Positions 5,793-31,522 are shown, counted from the stretch's first letter. The stretch: DNA of 32,000 nt from Verrucomicrobiota bacterium (GCA_008932965.1 WBXG01000005.1:8307-40306); one strand, 5' to 3'. Program-made: numbers and translations. Notes: generated by a model not told the origin, from the letters alone.

Positions 5793-7574
5793 ATGCAAAA
5801 AAAATGGATTCTTCCTTCTTCGGCAGATTCTAAGCTAGTTGAGAGGCTTGCTAAGGAATTGAAACTACCGCTGGCTCTTACTGAGGTGCTGGTGCAACGA
5901 GGATATGCCTCTGTAGAAGTTGCTACCAATTTTCTCAATCCACGTTTGGCTCAGTTGCGACCTCCTGAGGAGATTCCAAATATTTCTGCGGCAGCAGATC
6001 GTTTGCAAGTGGCATTGCAAAAAAAAGAAAAGATTATTCTTTATGGGGATTATGATGTTGATGGCATTACTTCATTAACCTTGTTGTGTCGCTCTTTGAG
6101 AGCTTTGGGAGGTGACGTTGATTGTTTTATTCCAGAGCGTGCTTCAGAGGGATATGGGCTTAGCAAGGCAGGATTGAAACGGTGTTTTGAAATATTCAAG
6201 CCAGGCCTTATCGTAGCTGTTGATTGTGGTACAAATTCTTTTGAGGAAGCTCAAATCATCCGGGAACAAAAAATCGATCTTATTGTTGTTGATCACCATG
6301 AAATTCAAAATAGAGGTCAGGCTAAGATTTTTGACAAAACTTCAATAGTAGTAGAATCAATAGAAACATCATCATGTTTTGTCAAAAATCTTAGCTTGAC
6401 CTCTATTTTAGTAAATCCTCAGCTAGGTTCTGACTATCACTATCTTTGTAGTGTTGGCTTGGTTTTCAAGCTCGTTCATGCACTGCTCAAGCGTTATCCC
6501 GCTCCCCCTTTTGACTTACGTGAATATCTTGATCTTGTGGCTTTAGGAACGGTTGCTGATATCGTCCCTCTTACGAAAGAAAATCGTATTTTTGTGACAC
6601 ATGGTCTCAAGCAGCTAGCTAAATCACGATGGCCGGGAGTAGTAGCTTTAATTAAGATTGCGGAGGTTCAACCCCCCTTTACTACCTATGACGTAGGTTA
6701 TAAATTGGGACCTCGTTTAAATGCAGCTGGTCGTCTTTCCTCTGCTTTAGAGGCATTGGAGCTATTGCTCACTGATGATCCTAATACTGCAACTCGTCTT
6801 GCCCATGATTTGGATCTTCGTAACCGTGAACGTCAGCTCATTGAGCGTGCTGTGACCCAAGAGGCAGAGGAATTAGTGACCTCGATTTTTTCAACATCCT
6901 CTCCTAAAAGCATCGTTTTGGGCCGCTCTCATTGGCATCACGGTGTTGTGGGGATTGTGGCTTCTCGTATTTCAAAACGCTGGCATCGTCCAACTCTTAT
7001 TATTGGTTTTGATGAACAGGGTCTTGGAAAAGGGAGTGGACGGAGTATTGAAGACTTCTCTCTAGTAATGGCTTTAGAAAAGTGCGCTGCTGTTTTAGAA
7101 ACTTTTGGAGGGCATGCAATGGCAGCTGGACTCACATTAAAAAAGAAAAATTGTGACATCCTCGCTAGCTCTTTTGAGCAGGCTGCAGAGCTTCTTCTCA
7201 CAGAAGAGGAGCTTACTCCTAAATTAAGATTCCATGCAGAAATAAAAACCTCAGAGCTTGATTCCAGTTGGTTGTTGGCACAAGAGAGGCTAGCCCCGTT
7301 TGGTGCAGGAAATGCACAACCGCTTTTTCTGGCTTATTCACTAATTCCGTTGCGAGAGCCACGTCTCTTAAAGGAAAAACATCTTCGTTTTGAATTTGCT
7401 GGAAAAAAGAATGTTCCCCTCATTGGAATTTTCTTTAATGGCGCTCAAGAGCCCCTTCCAAAGCCACCGTGGGATATTGCTTTTACGCTTATGAGCAATA
7501 CTTACCTTGGAAGAACAACGATGCAACTTCAGATTGTTGCGATTCGAACATCCTCGTTATCGCAGTTGATTTAA
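5793..7574 (+). CDS. recJ: Single-stranded-DNA-specific 5'-3' exonuclease RecJ
   Basis: DHH-family motifs are present: YGDYDVDGITS, VDCGT, VVDHH and GGHAMAAG (DHHA1). The length of 593 aa fits the family. Confidence 0.93.
   Translation: MQKKWILPSSADSKLVERLAKELKLPLALTEVLVQRGYASVEVATNFLNPRLAQLRPPEEIPNISAAADRLQVALQKKEKIILYGDYDVDGITSLTLLCRSLRALGGDVDCFIPERASEGYGLSKAGLKRCFEIFKPGLIVAVDCGTNSFEEAQIIREQKIDLIVVDHHEIQNRGQAKIFDKTSIVVESIETSSCFVKNLSLTSILVNPQLGSDYHYLCSVGLVFKLVHALLKRYPAPPFDLREYLDLVALGTVADIVPLTKENRIFVTHGLKQLAKSRWPGVVALIKIAEVQPPFTTYDVGYKLGPRLNAAGRLSSALEALELLLTDDPNTATRLAHDLDLRNRERQLIERAVTQEAEELVTSIFSTSSPKSIVLGRSHWHHGVVGIVASRISKRWHRPTLIIGFDEQGLGKGSGRSIEDFSLVMALEKCAAVLETFGGHAMAAGLTLKKKNCDILASSFEQAAELLLTEEELTPKLRFHAEIKTSELDSSWLLAQERLAPFGAGNAQPLFLAYSLIPLREPRLLKEKHLRFEFAGKKNVPLIGIFFNGAQEPLPKPPWDIAFTLMSNTYLGRTTMQLQIVAIRTSSLSQLI
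6307..6409. repeat. 103-bp palindromic element embedded in frame in recJ (34-bp arms, 35-nt spacer)
   Basis: The left arm 6307-6340 (AAAATAGAGGTCAGGCTAAGATTTTTGACAAAAC) is the reverse complement of 6376-6409, with one mismatch that would be a G:U pair in RNA. It encodes about 34 extra residues between the DHH motif and the conserved NP. Confidence 0.9.
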
Positions 7575-10631: not shown

Positions 10632-11069
10632 ATGAAGAAAATATTATTACTGCTATGCCTCCTCGGCGCTCTGACTTTTATGCCTGCTAGGGTCATGGCC
10701 CACTGTCAAATTCCCTGTGGTATTTTTCATGATGGTCTTATTTTTGAAACATTAGAGCAAAACATAGAGACCCTACAAAAAGCCGATCATGAGCTCAGTG
10801 ACTCATCTCTTTCTAACAATCAATCGGTGCGTTGGATCTTAAATAAAGAAGCCCAATCTGATCAGATCGCGCAGACAATGTTGACCTATTTTTTACAACA
10901 ACGTATTAAGCTAGATGATCCCAAACGCGCTGAAAAATTAGACCTTATTTCCAAAATTGTGATGCAATGCACCAAAGTAAAACAAACCACAGATGCTAAG
11001 GAGGTTTTCACTCTTGGTGATGAAATTCAACAACTCAAAGGACTTTCTGGTGTTGTTTTAGCAAAATAG
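10632..11069 (+). CDS. sodN: Nickel-containing superoxide dismutase (NiSOD) precursor with a Sec-type leader
   Basis: After a 23-aa leader (MKKILLLLCLLGALTFMPARVMA) comes the Ni-hook motif HCQIPCGIF (consensus H-C-x-x-P-C-G-x-Y). The mature part is about 122 aa, which fits the four-helix-bundle NiSOD. Confidence 0.8.
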   Translation: MKKILLLLCLLGALTFMPARVMAHCQIPCGIFHDGLIFETLEQNIETLQKADHELSDSSLSNNQSVRWILNKEAQSDQIAQTMLTYFLQQRIKLDDPKRAEKLDLISKIVMQCTKVKQTTDAKEVFTLGDEIQQLKGLSGVVLAK

Positions 11070-13914: not shown

Positions 13915-15912
13915 TCATAAGTTCTTCACTCGGAAAATATGCGCTGGGTGTGTGAGTGGATTGAGAGAGATAAAATTATGAGTTCCTTTCCACTCATAGC
14001 ATTCCCCGGTGAGAAGATCTTCGACACAATAAGGACTTTCATAAGGAATTCCTAGCCGATGGAGAGGGATTTCTACCGTTGCTGCTTGCTGCTGGTGAGG
14101 ATCTAGATTGACCATAATCAAGAGATGGTTTGTGTTATCTTCCGAAGATCTTAAATAAGCAATAATAGCATTATTATTACTATGGCAAAATTGAAGCTGA
14201 TGGGTGTTTTGAAGGGCACTGTTAGAGTTGCGAATCTGATTTAAACGAGTAATCCAAGGTTTGATATTGCCAGGAGCATTCCAATCACGTTCCTTAAATT
14301 GATATTTTTCTGAATCAGCATACTCCTCCTTGCCAGGCAGAGCAGCATTTTCACAAAGTTCAAAACCACTATAAATTCCATAAATCGAAGAGAGGGTGGC
14401 TGCCAAAGCAGCTCTAATAAGGAAAGCAGAACGTCCCCCCTCTTGAAGATAGAAAGGGAGAATATCAGGAGTGTTGGGGAAAAGATTAGGGCGAAAATAT
14501 TCTTTCATTTCCGAGTGAGTAAGTTCGGTAAAGTAATTTTCTAGCTCTTCTTTGGTATTACGCCAGGTGAAGTAACTATAACTTTGCGTAAACCCAATCT
14601 TTGCGAGTTTTTTCATCATCGCTGGGTGGGTAAAAGCTTCACTCAAAAAAATGACATCAGGATACTTTTCCTGAACCTCTGCAATGACCCATTGCCAAAA
14701 AGTAACTGGCTTGGTATGGGGATTGTCGACACGGAATATGCGCACTCCACGCTCCGCCCAAATAAGAAAGATGCCTAATAGCTCCTTCCAGAGTTCTTTC
14801 CACCTTGTGTTATAAAAATTGAGAGGAAAAACATCCTCATATTTTTTGGGAGGATTTTCGGCATATTTTATCGATCCATCTGGCCGATGATAGAACCATT
14901 CAGGATATTGTTGAACATAGGGATGATCTGGAGAACAGTTGAGTGCAAAATCCAAAGCTACTTCCATATTGCGTTCACGGACTTGAGCGATAAGCCATTG
15001 AAAATCCTCGATTGTTCCCAAAAGTGGTTCTATTGAATCATGTCCTCCTGTTACTGCGCCAATCGCATAAGGAACACCAGGATCTTCTGGTAGACATTCT
15101 AAAGAATTGTTCCTCCCTTTTCGTCCAGTAAGACCAATAGGATGAATAGGGGGGAAGTAGATAACATGAAAGCCCATTGCTTTGGCATCATCGATGCGTG
15201 CAAGAGCTTCACGAAAGTTAGACCCCGATTCTTTTTTTCCCTCTGCTGAACGAGGAAAAAATTCATACCATGCCCCAAAAGCTGCTCGCAGACGGTCTAC
15301 TCGAACTTGTTGAAAGGGCTCGAATAATGTCGAAAAAGAACGATCAGGATAGCGATGCATCAAAAAAAGCAGTCGCTCCGTTTTTAAAAAATCTTTCAAA
15401 GAGTAAAGGGAAGATTTTTTTTCTAATTCAATAGCAAAGTTTATGAGCTCTTGTTGTTCTGCATTATCTTTAGATCGCTGAGCCGCTGCATGAATCAGGA
15501 TTGCTCCTTCTTGTGCTTCTAGATGAAGATCCTCAATACCAGCCTCAATCTTTTTTTTAACCTCTTGCAACCAGGAATCAAAGGGATCTCCCCATGCTTC
15601 GATCGTATATTCAGTGAATCCCACAGAGGTTACTTGAAACGAGCCTTGAAACCGATGGTTCTCAAGAAGTTTCATCGGTATTTCTTGCCACAGGGATTGA
15701 TTTTTAGAATTTCTATTTTCAGTTTCAGTTGATTTTGAATGGCTGCTCTTAGCGCGCCATTTCAAAAGAGCACGCACAGCATCATGCCCCTCTTTGAAGA
15801 TGGTAGCCTCTATTACGACTGATTGACCAGGAACACGTTTGATTGGAAATTGGCCCCCTTCGATAGAGGGAGAGAGATCTTCAATAGTGATGCTTGGGAA
15901 AGGAGAGCCCAT
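13915..15912 (-). CDS. glgE: Alpha-1,4-glucan:maltose-1-phosphate maltosyltransferase GlgE (GH13_3)
   Basis: The N-terminal domain matches the GlgE type (GGQFPIKRVPGQSVVIEATIFKEGHDAV). Catalytic blocks are IFRVDNPHTKP and IFLSEAFT, and GFTQSYSYFTWRNTK is present. I chose the start MGSPF (15912), 16 nt after the upstream stop; the ORF can extend to 15987. Confidence 0.88.
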   Translation of the reverse strand: MGSPFPSITIEDLSPSIEGGQFPIKRVPGQSVVIEATIFKEGHDAVRALLKWRAKSSHSKSTETENRNSKNQSLWQEIPMKLLENHRFQGSFQVTSVGFTEYTIEAWGDPFDSWLQEVKKKIEAGIEDLHLEAQEGAILIHAAAQRSKDNAEQQELINFAIELEKKSSLYSLKDFLKTERLLFLMHRYPDRSFSTLFEPFQQVRVDRLRAAFGAWYEFFPRSAEGKKESGSNFREALARIDDAKAMGFHVIYFPPIHPIGLTGRKGRNNSLECLPEDPGVPYAIGAVTGGHDSIEPLLGTIEDFQWLIAQVRERNMEVALDFALNCSPDHPYVQQYPEWFYHRPDGSIKYAENPPKKYEDVFPLNFYNTRWKELWKELLGIFLIWAERGVRIFRVDNPHTKPVTFWQWVIAEVQEKYPDVIFLSEAFTHPAMMKKLAKIGFTQSYSYFTWRNTKEELENYFTELTHSEMKEYFRPNLFPNTPDILPFYLQEGGRSAFLIRAALAATLSSIYGIYSGFELCENAALPGKEEYADSEKYQFKERDWNAPGNIKPWITRLNQIRNSNSALQNTHQLQFCHSNNNAIIAYLRSSEDNTNHLLIMVNLDPHQQQAATVEIPLHRLGIPYESPYCVEDLLTGECYEWKGTHNFISLNPLTHPAHIFRVKNL

Positions 15913-15928
15913 GAGGTGGAGTTGGAAT

Positions 15929-17014
15929 TTAAAATTGGAGTTTGGATAAAAAACTTGAAAACTCATTCCAATGACTCTCTGGTTCAAGCTGAGTTAACGC
16001 ATGTCTGAGCCCCTTGAGAGCCGATGGAACATGCTCAAGAAAATGGGATTTTCCTCGATCGAGTCCTAAAAAACCGTAACAGCCAAGAGCCTGCATCAAG
16101 CGTTGAAGTGCACAGCACCAAAAAATCTTTTCAATATCATAGGAAAAAACAAATTGGTGTTTTTTCATTTCTTGCTGATAAAAGTCGAGCAATTCTTGTC
16201 TCTCCAATGCAGTAAGTGTGACATAAGGATCACATAGTAGAGAAGCAAGGTCATAAGGGGCTAGTCCAGCTCGCATTCCTTGAAAGTCAATCAATCCAAC
16301 CTGATTTCCAAAGAGAAGAATATTTTGAGATTGAAAATCACGATGAATGAGTTGTCGAGGCAGGGAGGCAAGTTGATTTGAGAGAGTTTCAAAGGGGTGG
16401 GTAGAAAGGAGTTTATTTCTTATTTTTGGATCAACCTTAAAAAGAGAACCCAAGGCATGTTCAAAAAAATAATGTTGCTCCCAACGATAGAGTTCTTGTT
16501 CAAATGCTGGTTGCAATGTGACTTCCTCTTTTGCTTTTTCAAGTGAAATTCGATGTAATCGTGCTGCCTCGATCAGGCTCTTTTCATACCATGGGCGGCG
16601 CTCTTCCCATGAAGCCTCACGCATACTCCATAGATTTTTTTTACCAAGGTCTTGAAGCCACAACAGGCATTCTTGCTCAGAATAATTCATGACTGAGGGA
16701 ACAGAAATACCTTGTTTTCTTAAAAAAAAAGCGTGCTCTGCATAAGAACTATTTTCTGATTTTTCTCTGTTGTAGTGAACCAGGATAAGAGAGTCTCCAG
16801 AAGTATTGATACAACGGTAAAATTCCCGATCAGAACCCCCTTCATAAATAGAAAGGAGAGTGGCTTGTTCAAACTGAGGAAAACGTTCGCTCGTTTTCCT
16901 CAAAAGCTGGTCATGCGTCATCATTGCATGATTATGAGTACTTTTGGACTGAAACGCAATTTCTTCGAAATCAGTTTTTAACTCTTTTTGTAAAAAGAAG
17001 CGGTAGAAACTCAA
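15929..17014 (-). CDS. APH-fold sugar kinase, AmgK-like (anomeric sugar 1-kinase family); substrate unknown
   Basis: Contains a nucleotide-binding region (GGSDREFYRC), a catalytic loop (LIHRDFQSQNILL) and a metal-binding segment (LIDFQGMRAGLAPYDLASLLCDPY). This resembles the HRDYHSRN and DFQDA...YDL.SLL.D pattern of MurNAc/GlcNAc anomeric kinases (from memory). It does not match the maltokinase HGDLHLGQ/DFEGE pattern. Confidence 0.8.
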   Translation of the reverse strand: MSFYRFFLQKELKTDFEEIAFQSKSTHNHAMMTHDQLLRKTSERFPQFEQATLLSIYEGGSDREFYRCINTSGDSLILVHYNREKSENSSYAEHAFFLRKQGISVPSVMNYSEQECLLWLQDLGKKNLWSMREASWEERRPWYEKSLIEAARLHRISLEKAKEEVTLQPAFEQELYRWEQHYFFEHALGSLFKVDPKIRNKLLSTHPFETLSNQLASLPRQLIHRDFQSQNILLFGNQVGLIDFQGMRAGLAPYDLASLLCDPYVTLTALERQELLDFYQQEMKKHQFVFSYDIEKIFWCCALQRLMQALGCYGFLGLDRGKSHFLEHVPSALKGLRHALTQLEPESHWNEFSSFLSKLQF

Positions 17015-17035
17015 TAGCTCTGTTCAAATAGGAAA

Positions 17036-19390
17036 TTAATTTTCCATTTTTGAAACTAAAATCACAACAGAGCGTGATTCTACTAAGTAACTTTCCGCAT
17101 TGATGGAAGGGGCTTCTTTCCAAGGGAGGATGTCCTGAGGCGATTCCTTAAAAGTATCAATACAACAACGCCAGGGTGTGTAGAAATTAGTGCACAAGGG
17201 AATTTCAAATTCTAGAGATTTCCAAAAAGAATTGATCATGATATGAATCATCACTTTGTGATCATAATTACGCATTGTTGCAGCTAAGGCGTGTGAATCT
17301 GCACCTAGGTCAGGAGCATTGAGTTTGACACCATGCCACTCAATGGCTTTTTCGATAAGAAGTTCTCTCAATGTTTGAGCATAGGTGTCACAAAGATGAC
17401 TGCGGTCTAAACGAAAATTAATGAGTTGCCGTGTGAATCGATGGATATCGGCATGTTTCTTGAGGAGGGACCAGTCAAAGGATCCGATATCACCTGCATG
17501 ACAGTAGGCATTGTTATTTCCTTGTTGAGTACGTCTCACCTCATCACCAGCTAAAATCATTGGTGTTCCTACAGAGAAAAAAAGTATTGTTAAAAAATTT
17601 TTAATTTGTCGATTGCGTAATTTTTCAATTTCAGAATCCTCCGTAGGCCCCTCCATTCCGCAATTCCAGCTGCAATTGAAATTAGATCCATCGCGGTTGT
17701 TTTCTTGATTAGCTTCATTATGCTTTTCATTATAGCTCACCAGATCATTGAGAGTAAAACCATCGTGACAGGTAATAAAATTGACGCTCTGTTCAGGGTT
17801 TCTCTCTTCATTTTCATAAATATCTGGGCTCCCTGTCATGCGGTAAGCAAGAGATCTAATAGTATTATTATCTCCTTTAATAAAAGAGCGAACATCATCA
17901 CGAAAATGTCCATTCCACTCATTCCAGGAATCTCCAGGAAAATGTCCCACTTGGTACAGTCCGGCAGCATCCCATGCCTCTGCAAATAACTTAATGTTTG
18001 CTAGTACAGGATCGGATTCGATATCCCAGATAGTAGGAGGATGAGCCATGGGAGTTCCTGATTCATCACGAGAGAGAATAGAGGCTAGATCAAAACGAAA
18101 ACCATCGATATGCATCTCATCAACCCAATAACGAAGAGAGTCAAGAATGAGACGACGCACAATAGATTCATTAGCGTTGAAGGTATTTCCACAACCACTA
18201 AAGTCAGCATAGGTTGCTTTATCTTTTCCTAAAATATAGTAGGTTTCATTGCCAAGTCCACGGAAAGAGAGTGTAGGGCCATGAAGGCCTCCTTCCGTAG
18301 TGTGATTAAAAACGACATCGAGAATTACTTCAATGTTTGCACGATGCAGTGCTTTGACCATGGAACGAAATTCATCTAATACGGCTAATGGCTCTTTTTT
18401 TGAGGAATACTGAGGATGCGGTGCAAAAAAAGCATAGGGTTGATAGCCCCATATATTAGAAAGGCCATCGGGTGCGTCTTCCGGGTCAAAGGCAAAGATC
18501 GGGAGTAATTCCACAGCAGTGATTCCAAGCTCTTTTAAATAGGGGATTTTTTCAATAACTCCAGCATAGGTACCTCTTTTTTCAGGAGAGAGACCAGAAT
18601 TAGGATTGCTAGTGAATGTCCCAATATTCATTTCGTAAATAACTGTTTTACATAAAGGATGGCGCAAAGGCAAATCACCCTCCCAATCGTAAGATTTAGA
18701 ATGAACAACTACATTTTTTATCGCAGTAACACAATTATCCCCTGGTGCTGCAGCAGCTTTACGGGAACGAGAAGAAGGGAGAGCTATACATTTTCCATAA
18801 GGATCAAGTAATACTTTTTCAGAGTCAAAGCGAAGTCCCTCCTTGCTATTAAAGGGACCATACATACGCCAAGCATAAATTTGGCCCTCTTTCAGACCAG
18901 GTACAAAAACATGCCAATAATGATAAGATCTATTTTGCTGGGTTGTAAGTGGAATCACTTTCGAGGGCTTGGTATCCTCAATATGATCAAAAAGCAGCAA
19001 CTCCGCCTGCTTTGCATGTTTTGAAAAGATGCTAAAGTTAACGCCATGCTTAAATACAGTGGCTCCAAGTGGAAAACTTCTCCCCGTCTCCTTGCCAAAT
19101 GCTGCTCTTGAAACTAATCCAGATATTTCATGCTCATCACCTACAACAATTGGGGAGCCAGATGGATGCTGCGATGAGCTCAAAGTAGTGCTCTGGCAGT
19201 GTATGCTTGCACCTAGGTCGTCAGACTTCATCACATATCCTGACCCATCAGGCTTCGCAGCCTCCTCGTCACGATCAGTATGAAATATCTCAGTGAGCTG
19301 GGAGGACTCCATGTTTACCTCCTTGGGTTTATTCAAGGACTGAGCGCTAGGAGCTGCTCCAGGGATATTCTTTGTGGTAAGATCTGTCAT
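17036..19390 (-). CDS. glgX: Glycogen debranching enzyme GlgX (GH13_11) with a ~100-aa N-terminal extension
   Basis: The core is colinear with E. coli GlgX from PLGATVFKHGVNFSIFS onward. Catalytic blocks are GFRFDLASIL, AEAWD and VNFITCHDGFTLND. Confidence 0.92.
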   Translation of the reverse strand: MTDLTTKNIPGAAPSAQSLNKPKEVNMESSQLTEIFHTDRDEEAAKPDGSGYVMKSDDLGASIHCQSTTLSSSQHPSGSPIVVGDEHEISGLVSRAAFGKETGRSFPLGATVFKHGVNFSIFSKHAKQAELLLFDHIEDTKPSKVIPLTTQQNRSYHYWHVFVPGLKEGQIYAWRMYGPFNSKEGLRFDSEKVLLDPYGKCIALPSSRSRKAAAAPGDNCVTAIKNVVVHSKSYDWEGDLPLRHPLCKTVIYEMNIGTFTSNPNSGLSPEKRGTYAGVIEKIPYLKELGITAVELLPIFAFDPEDAPDGLSNIWGYQPYAFFAPHPQYSSKKEPLAVLDEFRSMVKALHRANIEVILDVVFNHTTEGGLHGPTLSFRGLGNETYYILGKDKATYADFSGCGNTFNANESIVRRLILDSLRYWVDEMHIDGFRFDLASILSRDESGTPMAHPPTIWDIESDPVLANIKLFAEAWDAAGLYQVGHFPGDSWNEWNGHFRDDVRSFIKGDNNTIRSLAYRMTGSPDIYENEERNPEQSVNFITCHDGFTLNDLVSYNEKHNEANQENNRDGSNFNCSWNCGMEGPTEDSEIEKLRNRQIKNFLTILFFSVGTPMILAGDEVRRTQQGNNNAYCHAGDIGSFDWSLLKKHADIHRFTRQLINFRLDRSHLCDTYAQTLRELLIEKAIEWHGVKLNAPDLGADSHALAATMRNYDHKVMIHIMINSFWKSLEFEIPLCTNFYTPWRCCIDTFKESPQDILPWKEAPSINAESYLVESRSVVILVSKMEN

Positions 19391-28471: not shown

Positions 28472-31400
28472 ATGAGAGTTCTTAAGCATTTGCTTCCTAT
28501 ATTAGTATTGTTTTCTATTACTAGTGACCATCTGCAAGCTCAGGAAGGAAACACTTCTTACGATTTTTTCTACGCTTCTATAGAAAAGTTTTGTTCTTTT
28601 TTAAATGCTAGTCCTGCATCAGATACGTTTCAACTTTATACAAGTGAGATGGAGGGGGGGCCTATTATACGCTTGGGAACTCCTGGTTTTTATACTTACT
28701 CCTACATTGAGAAAGATGGTTCTTTGCCCATGCGTGATTTTTCTTGGAGTGCTGCTTCCCTATTTTGCAACTGGGAGAAAAGCGGCGCTCTTTCTCAAGC
28801 TCTCTGGCTTGAGTCAATGGAGCATGGTCTTAATGAGTTGAGAGAAAATAATCTCGCTTTGGTACATCGGGATGCATCTCATGTTCTCATTTCAGAGGAG
28901 AATGTGAGCCAACTTAAAAACAGTATTTTAGGAAACGATAAGATGCATTTCTGGATTTTTCCTAAAACAGGGGAATCTTTTTTGAAGCCGCTCCATGCTT
29001 TTAATGGTTCTATTGAAAAGGAATATTGTGATCCCAAGTTACAATCAAATCTTATAGGATGCGCTCTTAGCGACTTTGTGTGTGAAACAGCGGGTGCTAT
29101 TTCGTTCTCCAACGATCAAGAGGAATGGTTCGGTGTCATAGCGCTTCTATCACTAGTCAGCTTTGGAGGCGTTTATTGTTCAGGGGGGAGCATTCATTGT
29201 AATCATAGAACAGATCCTTTTAATCCTATGCTCAGGAAAAATGAAAGTACTCCTGATGCTTCAGGTGCTTCCTCCCTTTCTAATGCTCATTCTCATGAGT
29301 ATTTTGAGAAAGTTTCTCTTGTGGAATCCATCATGAATAGCGATTCCATTGCTCAAGAGGATCTTTTTGTAAATCATCCTTATTCATTATTTCAAGATAT
29401 AGAAAGTCTTCAGAATACCTTTGAAAAAATGCACGAGACTTTTTTGCTTCATGTTGCCTTGGATCATAAGGGTGGATCAACAATTGCAGCCAGTAATGCT
29501 TTACGTCTTAACGCCAGAGCCAGTGGGATAGATCAGAGAATATTCCAAGGAGAGGATGAAAGAAAATTAGCAAGAGCATCGGATCATAGTTTAATTGATC
29601 AAAAACTTTTTGTTTTACAAAAGCTTGCAGAATCAGCAAGGAGAGGAGCTGAAGCATACAAGACCTTTGCATTGATTGAGCAACAAATGCCTGAGTATTG
29701 GAATGATTTGCAAAATAAACTGCTCAACAATTCAATACGTATTGAAGCTGCTCAAGCAGGTCTTAAGTATGCTTTTCAAGATTTAAGTCCGCTTCATCTG
29801 CAGGCGATCAGGGGGGTATTTGATAGCACCTTTAAAAACTCTTTAGAGAGTGCAGATGTTCTAAATAGAACCCTTGTTTTAAAAGATTATCAATTCTTTA
29901 TTGATCAAGAGAGGGAGAAAAGCAGGAATGCTTGGACCAGGTTTTACTATCAGCGCAACCCCCTTTTGAATGCGTTTGCTTGGCGTACATTTGCTTCATT
30001 TATTACCGCATTAAAATCCCAGGTTTTTTTTACAGATCACGTCTCTGCAGCTACATCAATAGCGATGAATTATGCCGTAATGACAGTGGGAGATTACACG
30101 AGTTGCTATCGCCAATTTCCATTAGAGCAAGAAGAGCTTTCGCTTGCTGATTCTAATGCGCGTGCTTCAAAAAGCACTTATTCCTCGATGATGTACGAAT
30201 TTTATACTCGAGTTTGTTCGGGAGAATATTTTAGCAGTCCTGTTTTCTATTCCATGGTTTGGAACTTTTATAGGACTGTTTTTTCGGTGACTAGAAATTA
30301 TCCTGGTAATTTTTTTCATGATCACTTTTCAGCATTTATTGGAGCTGCCTGGGTGAATGAATGTGTCGATGATCTTACCCGTGGATGGCGCCAGTACGAA
30401 GAAGGGCCTGAAGAACGAAATATCCTCTTACGTGAAGCGAGACTCCATGAAGAAGATAACAATGAACGCTCTTTTCAATCTAAGCTGGAGGATAATAGTT
30501 GGCATGTTCAACCATTAAAAAATGAGCTGCTCCAGCATGCTAGGGAGGAAGAATCCTTTTTTCAGACTAATCTTCACAATACTTGCCGGTCTTCTTGGGA
30601 ATCCCAATCACTGCTATTTTCGAATTGCAATTCGGATGTGGTTACTATCGATGCTCTTTTTTCACAACTTGATAAGAATGAGTTATTGAATTCTAACAAG
30701 AGAATACTTGGTGATGAAAGCGCATTAAGTTTTCAAGACGAGCATGCTTCTATTAACGATCTAGAACGTCTGTTTTATAGTCAGGGAACGCATCTCGTTC
30801 GGGTCGGGATTTATAAAAAATTTGGAATCGGTGCAATTCAGCGATTTGATAATCAATTTCAGATTAAGATCAGGGCTCAAAATCCATTGATGGGTAGTGA
30901 GCTCCAAACATTTTTTATATCTGAAAAAGAGAAATTTAAAGAAAGCTATTTTATCTCTCCTATTTCGCGTTGGAGTGAGCAAGAGGGGATATCTGAAGAA
31001 GTCGCCCATTACATTATTAAATCGAGTGGGAGGAAGAGTGGCTTCAATCCATTTTATCATACAGAATTTTTGGATCCTATTGATGATGAAAACGAAACTT
31101 TAGAAGGTATTTCTGAGGCGAGAGATCAGCTTTGCCATATTTTTAATGATTTAAAACCTTTTCATCAGCGTGATATCATTTCCAATTTTAATATTCGATT
31201 TACTCCCTCTGGAAATACCTACTCGAGTTTTTTTGCTGATTCCTCCTGGAAAGAAGAACCATTGACTGTCCAGGCATTTCAATCCTTTATTCTAGAACAA
31301 CGGGAAAAAAGTCAGCAAAGGTGGACACAAATATATTATGATTGTATTAGCAACCCTTACTTATGTGCTGGGCTTTGGAATACAGCCACCGTGGCATCAG

Positions 31401-31522
31401 CAGCAGCACGTATTTACTTTTTGTCTCACAATCTTGTAGTCTCAACCCTCATTGTGATGGCAGTGAATATTCCTGGAGATCTCACGGGTCGCTATCGTCA
31501 GCTACCACGTGAGCAGGAGTAG
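28472..31522 (+). CDS. Large (1016 aa) secreted/membrane protein: signal peptide, FGE/SUMF1-like N-terminal domain, TM helix, and an internally duplicated C-terminal module
   Basis: Long uninterrupted ORF with signal peptide MRVLKHLLPILVLFSITSDHLQAQ. The segment FLNA...D.F.LY..M.GG.I.R.G.PG.YTYS...PM...SW..A..F.NW resembles the PVC-type SUMF1-like domain. A TM helix is present (WFGVIALLSLVSFGGVY). Two homologous ~120-aa modules each end in YRQ(F/L)P(L/R)EQE. Confidence 0.7.
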   Translation: MRVLKHLLPILVLFSITSDHLQAQEGNTSYDFFYASIEKFCSFLNASPASDTFQLYTSEMEGGPIIRLGTPGFYTYSYIEKDGSLPMRDFSWSAASLFCNWEKSGALSQALWLESMEHGLNELRENNLALVHRDASHVLISEENVSQLKNSILGNDKMHFWIFPKTGESFLKPLHAFNGSIEKEYCDPKLQSNLIGCALSDFVCETAGAISFSNDQEEWFGVIALLSLVSFGGVYCSGGSIHCNHRTDPFNPMLRKNESTPDASGASSLSNAHSHEYFEKVSLVESIMNSDSIAQEDLFVNHPYSLFQDIESLQNTFEKMHETFLLHVALDHKGGSTIAASNALRLNARASGIDQRIFQGEDERKLARASDHSLIDQKLFVLQKLAESARRGAEAYKTFALIEQQMPEYWNDLQNKLLNNSIRIEAAQAGLKYAFQDLSPLHLQAIRGVFDSTFKNSLESADVLNRTLVLKDYQFFIDQEREKSRNAWTRFYYQRNPLLNAFAWRTFASFITALKSQVFFTDHVSAATSIAMNYAVMTVGDYTSCYRQFPLEQEELSLADSNARASKSTYSSMMYEFYTRVCSGEYFSSPVFYSMVWNFYRTVFSVTRNYPGNFFHDHFSAFIGAAWVNECVDDLTRGWRQYEEGPEERNILLREARLHEEDNNERSFQSKLEDNSWHVQPLKNELLQHAREEESFFQTNLHNTCRSSWESQSLLFSNCNSDVVTIDALFSQLDKNELLNSNKRILGDESALSFQDEHASINDLERLFYSQGTHLVRVGIYKKFGIGAIQRFDNQFQIKIRAQNPLMGSELQTFFISEKEKFKESYFISPISRWSEQEGISEEVAHYIIKSSGRKSGFNPFYHTEFLDPIDDENETLEGISEARDQLCHIFNDLKPFHQRDIISNFNIRFTPSGNTYSSFFADSSWKEEPLTVQAFQSFILEQREKSQQRWTQIYYDCISNPYLCAGLWNTATVASAAARIYFLSHNLVVSTLIVMAVNIPGDLTGRYRQLPREQE

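Follow-up and report, generated by a model that had tools for sequence, protein, structure and literature searches.

An AmgK-like kinase is encoded directly upstream of glgE in a 32,000-nucleotide stretch of DNA from a Verrucomicrobiota bacterium (GCA_008932965.1 WBXG01000005.1:8307-40306), here called the window. Comparison with relatives in the order Chthoniobacterales suggests that the kinase descends from a three-gene operon, in which a nucleotidyltransferase precedes the kinase and GlgE follows it. The reading favoured here, with a probability of roughly 0.45, is that the kinase is an AmgK-type anomeric sugar-1-kinase which feeds the nucleotidyltransferase, and that it is co-transcribed with glgE for reasons this reading does not explain.

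As an earlier note on this DNA had described, three genes follow one another on the minus strand of the window. The first is glgX (19390-17036), encoding a glycogen debranching enzyme. The second encodes the kinase, a predicted anomeric sugar kinase of the APH fold (17014-15929, 361 amino acid residues from TTG 17014, 66 bits on the Pfam APH model). The third is glgE (15912-13915), encoding an alpha-1,4-glucan:maltose-1-phosphate maltosyltransferase. The note had also reported that the window lacks treS, mak and glgB. A tblastn search of the window agrees, its sole matches being cross-hits on glgX.

The top NCBIfam match of the kinase is AmgK (NF045759), with 69.6 bits against a cutoff of 550. 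This cutoff does not discriminate, because AmgK-type proteins from Legionella (263 bits) and Bacteroides (63.9 bits) also fall short of it. No Mak model of Pfam or NCBIfam, neither TIGR02457 nor the Mak N-terminal cap, matches the kinase at E<=0.01. As a control, the Rhizobium TreS-Mak protein scores 520 bits on TIGR02457. Profile alignment with hhalign gives the same picture: the kinase family aligns with the Legionella protein, whose gene adjoins murU, over 284 columns at 99.1% probability, and with the Mak domain of Rhizobium TreS-Mak over 62 columns around the catalytic loop at 61%.

Structural comparison leads to one particular protein, 3csv. It is the only significant sequence match of the kinase in the PDB (2e-16 over 275 residues). 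The AlphaFold2 (AF2) model of the kinase has a predicted local distance difference test (pLDDT) score of 95 and matches APH folds. Foldseek places 3csv first, at a template modelling (TM) score of 0.77-0.79, with all other structures at or below 0.66. No Mak structure ranks among the 50 best fold matches, and none was found by PDB sequence search.

The kinase motifs quoted in the earlier note, LIHRDFQSQNILL and IDFQG...APYDLASLLCD, are present and invariant in the family. HRDFQSQN, which forms the catalytic HRD...N loop, and IDFQG, which holds the metal-binding DFQ motif, are invariant in 53-89 family members. The forms RDFQSxN and IDFQGxRxG are common to the family and the Bacteroides AmgK-like protein. 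AmgK and MurU are functional in Tannerella, a member of the Bacteroidota (PMC10941766, PMC7670621). No residue-level rules for AmgK specificity were found in the literature. Judged from its sequence, the kinase is AmgK-like and not Mak-like, as the note had proposed.

A scan of a genome collection with the kinase returned at least 591 relatives, and neighbourhoods were counted for the best 80 loci. Nearly all of these are from Chthoniobacterales, and the closest homologues come from metagenome-assembled genomes (MAGs) of that order. In 70 of the 80 loci the gene immediately upstream of the kinase encodes the transferase, with a median spacing of 0 nt. The next gene downstream is glgE in 19 loci, and a further 4 have glgE in the vicinity; about 10 of the 19 kinase/glgE junctions overlap by 4 bp. 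Recurrent nearby genes are of cell-wall type, such as YkuD L,D-transpeptidases, a Prc-type protease and a GlmM-like mutase.

In a neighbour-joining tree the kinases form one orthologous family. Loci linked to GlgE fill the deep clades, and a large derived clade keeps the transferase and kinase only, with GlgE not beside the kinase. A second scan, of metagenomes and with GlgE, provided 80 GlgE loci that were examined for a neighbouring kinase. The kinase is upstream in 23 of them and absent in 43. The GlgE tree mirrors the kinase tree: GlgEs lacking a kinase neighbour form one derived clade, which is sister to locus L076, as is the derived clade of the kinase tree. They come from Chthoniobacterales MAGs, apparently of the same series as the kinase-only loci. 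No overlapping DNA was found that joins the two kinds of locus, so the link between them rests on the congruent trees and the shared MAG series.

From these sequence comparisons we infer that transferase-kinase-GlgE is the ancestral operon order in Chthoniobacterales, and that the three genes persist after they separate. The kinase-glgE adjacency reported by the earlier note is kept in relatives, often with a stop/start overlap of 4 bp, and appears ancestral for the order. Co-transcription of the two genes is real and old.

The kinase-less GlgE loci of soil Chthoniobacterales (for example L121 5102-6223 and L137 4429-5070) have features of their own. A small winged-helix regulator precedes GlgE in 45. 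Twelve carry a MalK-like ATP-binding cassette ATPase, whose Walker A motif is seemingly degenerate (GPPDCGMSS). Genes for ExbB, ExbD and tetratricopeptide repeat proteins lie downstream of GlgE.

The nucleotidyltransferase is an NTP_transferase protein of about 315 residues. It consists of a MurU/GDP-mannose pyrophosphorylase (GMPP)-like catalytic domain followed by a short left-handed beta-helix (LbH). At full length it scores 144 bits on a mycobacterial GDP-mannose pyrophosphorylase model and 136 on the MurU model. A MurU-like neighbour of the Bacteroides kinase scores 134 on the latter. For the catalytic domain alone, MurU is the top NCBIfam match, at 137.7 or 99 bits against a cutoff of 250. 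Among solved structures, the transferase is best matched by a UGPase (8x7s), GMPPB and MurU. In L173 the transferase gene (6001-6908) is frameshifted near 6621 and appears as two tblastn pieces in different frames, which reflects either a sequencing error or gene decay in a lineage near the window clade.

The window belongs to a small clade in which the kinase and glgE lie together with no adjacent transferase (the window, L002, L003, L174 and L175). Where upstream sequence is covered, in the window, L003 and L174, it holds glgX and genes of the pentose phosphate pathway. A glgX gene upstream of the kinase is confined to this clade (L001, L003, L174). In the sister clade, the order is phosphohexomutase-YkuD-GNAT-transferase-kinase-GlgE. 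The phosphohexomutase, whose best match is GlmM-like, also lies beside the transferase in L179.

Evidence for what happened to the transferase comes from the MAG GCA_049314455.1, a member of the window clade whose kinase (P0004) is 67% identical to that of the window. Its transferase orthologue is on a separate contig, still flanked by YkuD and the mutase. Since the transferase has kept its ancestral flank, it is the kinase and glgE that moved, as a block, behind glgX; the transferase stayed at the old site and was retained. The earlier note had named a murU partner elsewhere in the genome as a warning sign against its own proposal. Such a partner, in the form of a positional orthologue of the transferase, does survive in this MAG. 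No nucleotidyltransferase was found in the window itself by tblastn.

A transferase remnant between glgX and the kinase was sought by tblastn in the window, L002, L003 and L174, and none was found. An open reading frame (ORF) of 190 residues at this position in L174 encodes an unrelated secreted protein. The GNAT gene downstream of glgE in the window was considered as the counterpart of the GNAT found ahead of the transferase in relatives, and was rejected at 20-30% identity; neither GNAT receives a specific function from NCBIfam. The window clade and its sister are also low in G+C, at 41-46% (window, L002, L003, L174, L008, L171, L173), compared with 53-66% in other Chthoniobacterales loci, which suggests that the order includes a low-GC lineage.

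Of the positions conserved among transferase-linked kinases, only five have changed in the window clade, and all five are unchanged in other transferase-less clades. The alignments thus carry no signature that would suggest a shift of specificity in transferase-less lineages. Those other clades have recruited no glucan genes beside the kinase. A glycosyltransferase family 4 (GT4) protein encoded directly upstream of the kinase in L055 was considered as a GlgM and rejected, with 31 bits to GlgM 6tvp and best matches of the BshA/MshA type.

In the proposed mechanism, the kinase would phosphorylate a free sugar at its anomeric C1 hydroxyl, giving an alpha-sugar-1-phosphate. The nucleotidyltransferase would then convert this product to a nucleoside diphosphate (NDP) sugar. 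Such a two-step salvage would resemble that of AmgK and MurU. The substrate would most likely be an amino sugar, for example N-acetylglucosamine (GlcNAc) or N-acetylmuramic acid (MurNAc).

Salvage of the AmgK type is favoured because of the family identity of the kinase, the nearly universal and tightly coupled transferase, the retention of that transferase in the window clade, and the cell-wall neighbours. A single function across all genomic contexts is favoured because the kinases form a single orthologous tree and only five positions differ in the window clade.

Several findings weigh against this reading. In deep lineages of the order, the kinase and glgE are transcribed together, for which salvage of amino sugars gives no reason. 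In the window clade, break-up of the cluster left the kinase joined to glgE, and the two came to lie behind glgX. Within 8-10 kb of about 110 GlgE loci, a neighbourhood search found no treS-mak and no glgB, whereas in Rhizobium glgE, treS/mak and glgB are contiguous. The kinase and the transferase both fall well short of the NCBIfam equivalog cutoffs. An LbH domain is part of the transferase, and its best full-length matches are the UGPase 8x7s and GDP-mannose pyrophosphorylases. To our knowledge, MurU has no LbH domain. Finally, the order transferase-kinase is opposite to that of amgK-murU in Legionella and Bacteroides.

The strongest competing explanation, although an unlikely one, is that of the earlier note, in which the kinase would replace maltokinase without being its orthologue. 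It would phosphorylate maltose, or short malto-oligosaccharides set free by GlgX and amylolysis, at C1 to alpha-maltose-1-phosphate, which GlgE would polymerise. In this scheme, the upstream transferase would supply the same glucan and trehalose network as an NDP-glucose pyrophosphorylase. Maltose-1-phosphate is toxic (PMC11046441, PMC7935935), and coupling of the kinase to glgE would stop it from building up. Extended to the whole order, the proposal becomes that an AmgK-family kinase, related to Mak only by fold and translationally coupled to GlgE, would form maltose-1-phosphate for the GlgE pathway throughout Chthoniobacterales. This broader statement is equally doubtful.

Gene linkage can be read in both directions. 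The kinase and glgE were neighbours ancestrally in the order and still are in several deep clades, 4-bp overlaps are common at their junction, and the pair has survived at least three separations from the transferase. All of this would suit a maltokinase. Nevertheless, the commonest and tightest partner of the kinase family is a nucleotidyltransferase, as in AmgK-MurU, and in the largest clade the kinase remains with the transferase while GlgE lies elsewhere. Neither linkage is clearly the stronger, because both junctions broke several times.

Gene content is divided in a similar way. In the window clade, the kinase-glgE pair joined glgX and sugar catabolism genes, but the other transferase-less clades took up no glucan genes, the GT4 of L055 is not GlgM-like, and the recurrent neighbours of the kinase are related to the cell wall. 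The missing treS, mak and glgB would leave room for a different maltokinase, although the treS-mak negative covers only the neighbourhoods of GlgE.

As for the enzymes themselves, the GlgE of the window retains motifs that align with the Streptomyces coelicolor enzyme. AmgK performs the alpha-anomeric phosphorylation that a maltokinase would require, on an APH fold which Mak shares. The best full-length PDB match of the transferase is a UGPase, its architecture is UGPase/GMPP-like, and the gene order is reversed relative to amgK-murU. On the other hand, no signature of a specificity shift separates kinases with and without an adjacent transferase, and we know of no nucleotidylation of maltose-1-phosphate.

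The earlier note had gone further and proposed a self-contained cycle of GlgX, kinase and GlgE. This proposal is weakened by two results: the glgX adjacency is confined to the window clade, and the commonest partner of the kinase is the MurU/GMPP-like nucleotidyltransferase found directly upstream in 70 of 80 loci.

A last explanation, improbable on present evidence, is that the kinase and transferase salvage a neutral hexose, for example glucose to alpha-glucose-1-phosphate and on to NDP-glucose. In one variant, the kinase would take the sugar left by a disaccharide phosphorylase. Any connection with GlgE would be indirect, through the supply of NDP-glucose or glucose-1-phosphate for glucan or trehalose synthesis, and the presence of GlgE in the operon is consistent with this. 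So are the LbH-bearing, UGPase/GMPP-like architecture of the transferase and the phosphohexomutase that adjoins it in the sister clade of the window and in L179, although the best match of that mutase is GlmM-like. The bifidobacterial APH-fold anomeric kinase NahK does work with a disaccharide phosphorylase, and a glycoside hydrolase family 94 (GH94) gene is divergent from the kinase in L030, but this neighbour occurs in a single locus. Moreover, phosphoglucomutase already supplies glucose-1-phosphate, and we know of no anomeric glucokinase in the family of the kinase. The L030 gene (7489-9849, minus strand) encodes a disaccharide phosphorylase of the cellobiose/chitobiose-phosphorylase type, divergent from kinase-glgE, and could be a source of free sugar for the anomeric kinase.

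A literature search found no paper on a transferase-kinase-GlgE operon or on an AmgK-like kinase beside GlgE. On the best reading, salvage of the AmgK type, the system is a divergent AmgK-MurU variant that takes the pair into a new phylum and has a conserved but unexplained link to GlgE. The pathway would then extend to Verrucomicrobiota with an unusual LbH-bearing transferase, and a kinase gene beside glgE would not be sufficient to annotate a maltokinase.

The consequences would be different if the kinase made maltose-1-phosphate. A 2024 review gives TreS-Pep2 and GlgC-GlgM as the sole routes to this compound (PMC11046441). The kinase would add to TreS-Mak and GlgC-GlgM a third, non-orthologous way of making the GlgE donor, and it would operate in a bacterial order that is among the most abundant in soil. 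AmgK-type kinases would also not be limited to cell-wall amino sugars. Either way, the conserved transferase-kinase-GlgE operon offers a small set of three proteins that is directly testable.

The two enzymes that flank the kinase in the window are ordinary members of their families. GlgX is a protein of 784 residues as the longest ORF, with CBM_48 and alpha-amylase catalytic domains (Pfam), and scores 679 bits on TIGR02100 against an equivalog cutoff of 641. About 100 extra N-terminal residues ahead of CBM48 (19390-19090) have no match; the true start may be further downstream, because relatives are 695-755 residues long. GlgE, a maltosyltransferase of family GH13_3, has 665 residues from its ATG, with the Pfam domains GlgE_dom_N_S (158 bits) and GLGE_C (92 bits). 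It aligns end to end with the S. coelicolor GlgE 3zss (612 bits), and full-length identity to annotated GlgEs of Streptomyces and Rhizobium is 46-47%. The motifs PPKKYEDV, RVDNPHTKP, LSEAFT and NTPDIL line up with 3zss. These motifs correspond to the nucleophile, the acid/base and the phosphate site. The gene is a genuine glgE.

The spacing of the three genes depends on where the kinase starts. Of the two gaps that the note had given, the 16 nt between kinase and glgE are correct, and the 21 nt between glgX and kinase apply only with the TTG start. In the alignment, all homologues except the two closest begin at the MMTHDQ methionines. Since nearly all homologues begin there, the true start is probably ATG 16924, which would give a protein of 331 residues about 111 nt after glgX. 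The 30 codons upstream of this start (17014-16925, minus strand) are open, and are conserved at the protein level in the closest relatives, P0001 and P0002, so the start codon is uncertain in the sub-lineage of the window. No terminator-like site lies in the glgX-kinase or the kinase-glgE gap. In the scan, terminator-like sites were somewhat commoner than in shuffles (24 compared with 14.3), and promoter-like sites were not more frequent than in shuffles.

Upstream of glgX, a string of carbohydrate genes occupies 27769-19479 on the minus strand, in an order identical to that of L003, so that the relocated kinase-glgE pair closes a series of pentose phosphate and glycolysis genes. Identified by Pfam and NCBIfam, it consists of tal (27769-26690), a ROK/polyphosphate-glucokinase-like gene (26660-25881), pgi (25690-24056), rpe (23912-23238), a short 6-phosphogluconate dehydrogenase (6PGDH) gene (23229-22183), zwf (22098-20728) and a pgl-rpiB fusion (20633-19479). 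The fusion protein, also found in L003 and L174, has 384 residues and joins a 6-phosphogluconolactonase of the Glucosamine_iso family to an RpiB ribose-5-phosphate isomerase domain.

Directly downstream of glgE, but outside the module, an Rpn-family PD-(D/E)XK nuclease or putative transposase is encoded at 13840-12941 on the minus strand (PDDEXK_2 152 bits, TIGR01784 132 bits). A copy 91% identical lies in the same place in L002 (3170-4081), where flanking orthologues are 67-85% identical. The nuclease is missing from this position in L174, and a PDDEXK_2 gene is near the operon in L173. On the plus strand, 10632-11069 encodes a nickel superoxide dismutase, with a signal-peptide-like leader before the HCQIPCG nickel hook, that is syntenic with L002. 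An ORF of 1016 residues (28472-31522, plus strand) has no Pfam match at E<=0.01.

Among known systems, the closest comparison is with AmgK-MurU of Pseudomonas, Legionella and Tannerella. The kinases share the APH fold and the HRD...N and DFQ motifs, and are 23-30% identical over their full length. In most relatives of the window kinase, the paired gene, which often overlaps, encodes an NTP_transferase, and MurU is the best match of its catalytic domain. On the AmgK and MurU models, the two proteins and their Bacteroides homologues reach equal scores. The differences lie in gene order and architecture. Here the transferase precedes the kinase, and in Chthoniobacterales it has a C-terminal LbH and resembles GMPP/UGPase at full length. 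The Chthoniobacterales pair is ancestrally followed by glgE, and the window kinase has no transferase gene beside it.

Mak/Pep2, of the TreS-Mak-GlgE pathway in Mycobacterium, Streptomyces, Rhizobium and Chlamydiae, shares the superfamily fold and the habit of adjoining glgE. Its chemistry, the ATP-dependent phosphorylation of an anomeric hydroxyl to an alpha-1-phosphate, is also that of the AmgK type. However, the window kinase lacks the Mak N-terminal cap, a TIGR02457 match, and TreS as a partner or fusion.

Two further kinases can be compared. The structural-genomics protein 3csv from Silicibacter sp. TM1040, labelled 'aminoglycoside phosphotransferase', is similar in sequence and fold and about 20% identical to the kinase, but its structure comes with no ligand and no demonstrated substrate. 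NahK, from the bifidobacterial galacto-N-biose/lacto-N-biose (GNB/LNB) pathway, is an APH-fold anomeric kinase for GlcNAc and N-acetylgalactosamine (GalNAc) that works alongside a phosphorylase and a nucleotidyl-transfer step. No detectable sequence match to the window kinase was seen, so NahK serves as an analogy: an anomeric kinase of the same fold in a pathway with a nucleotidyl-transfer step.

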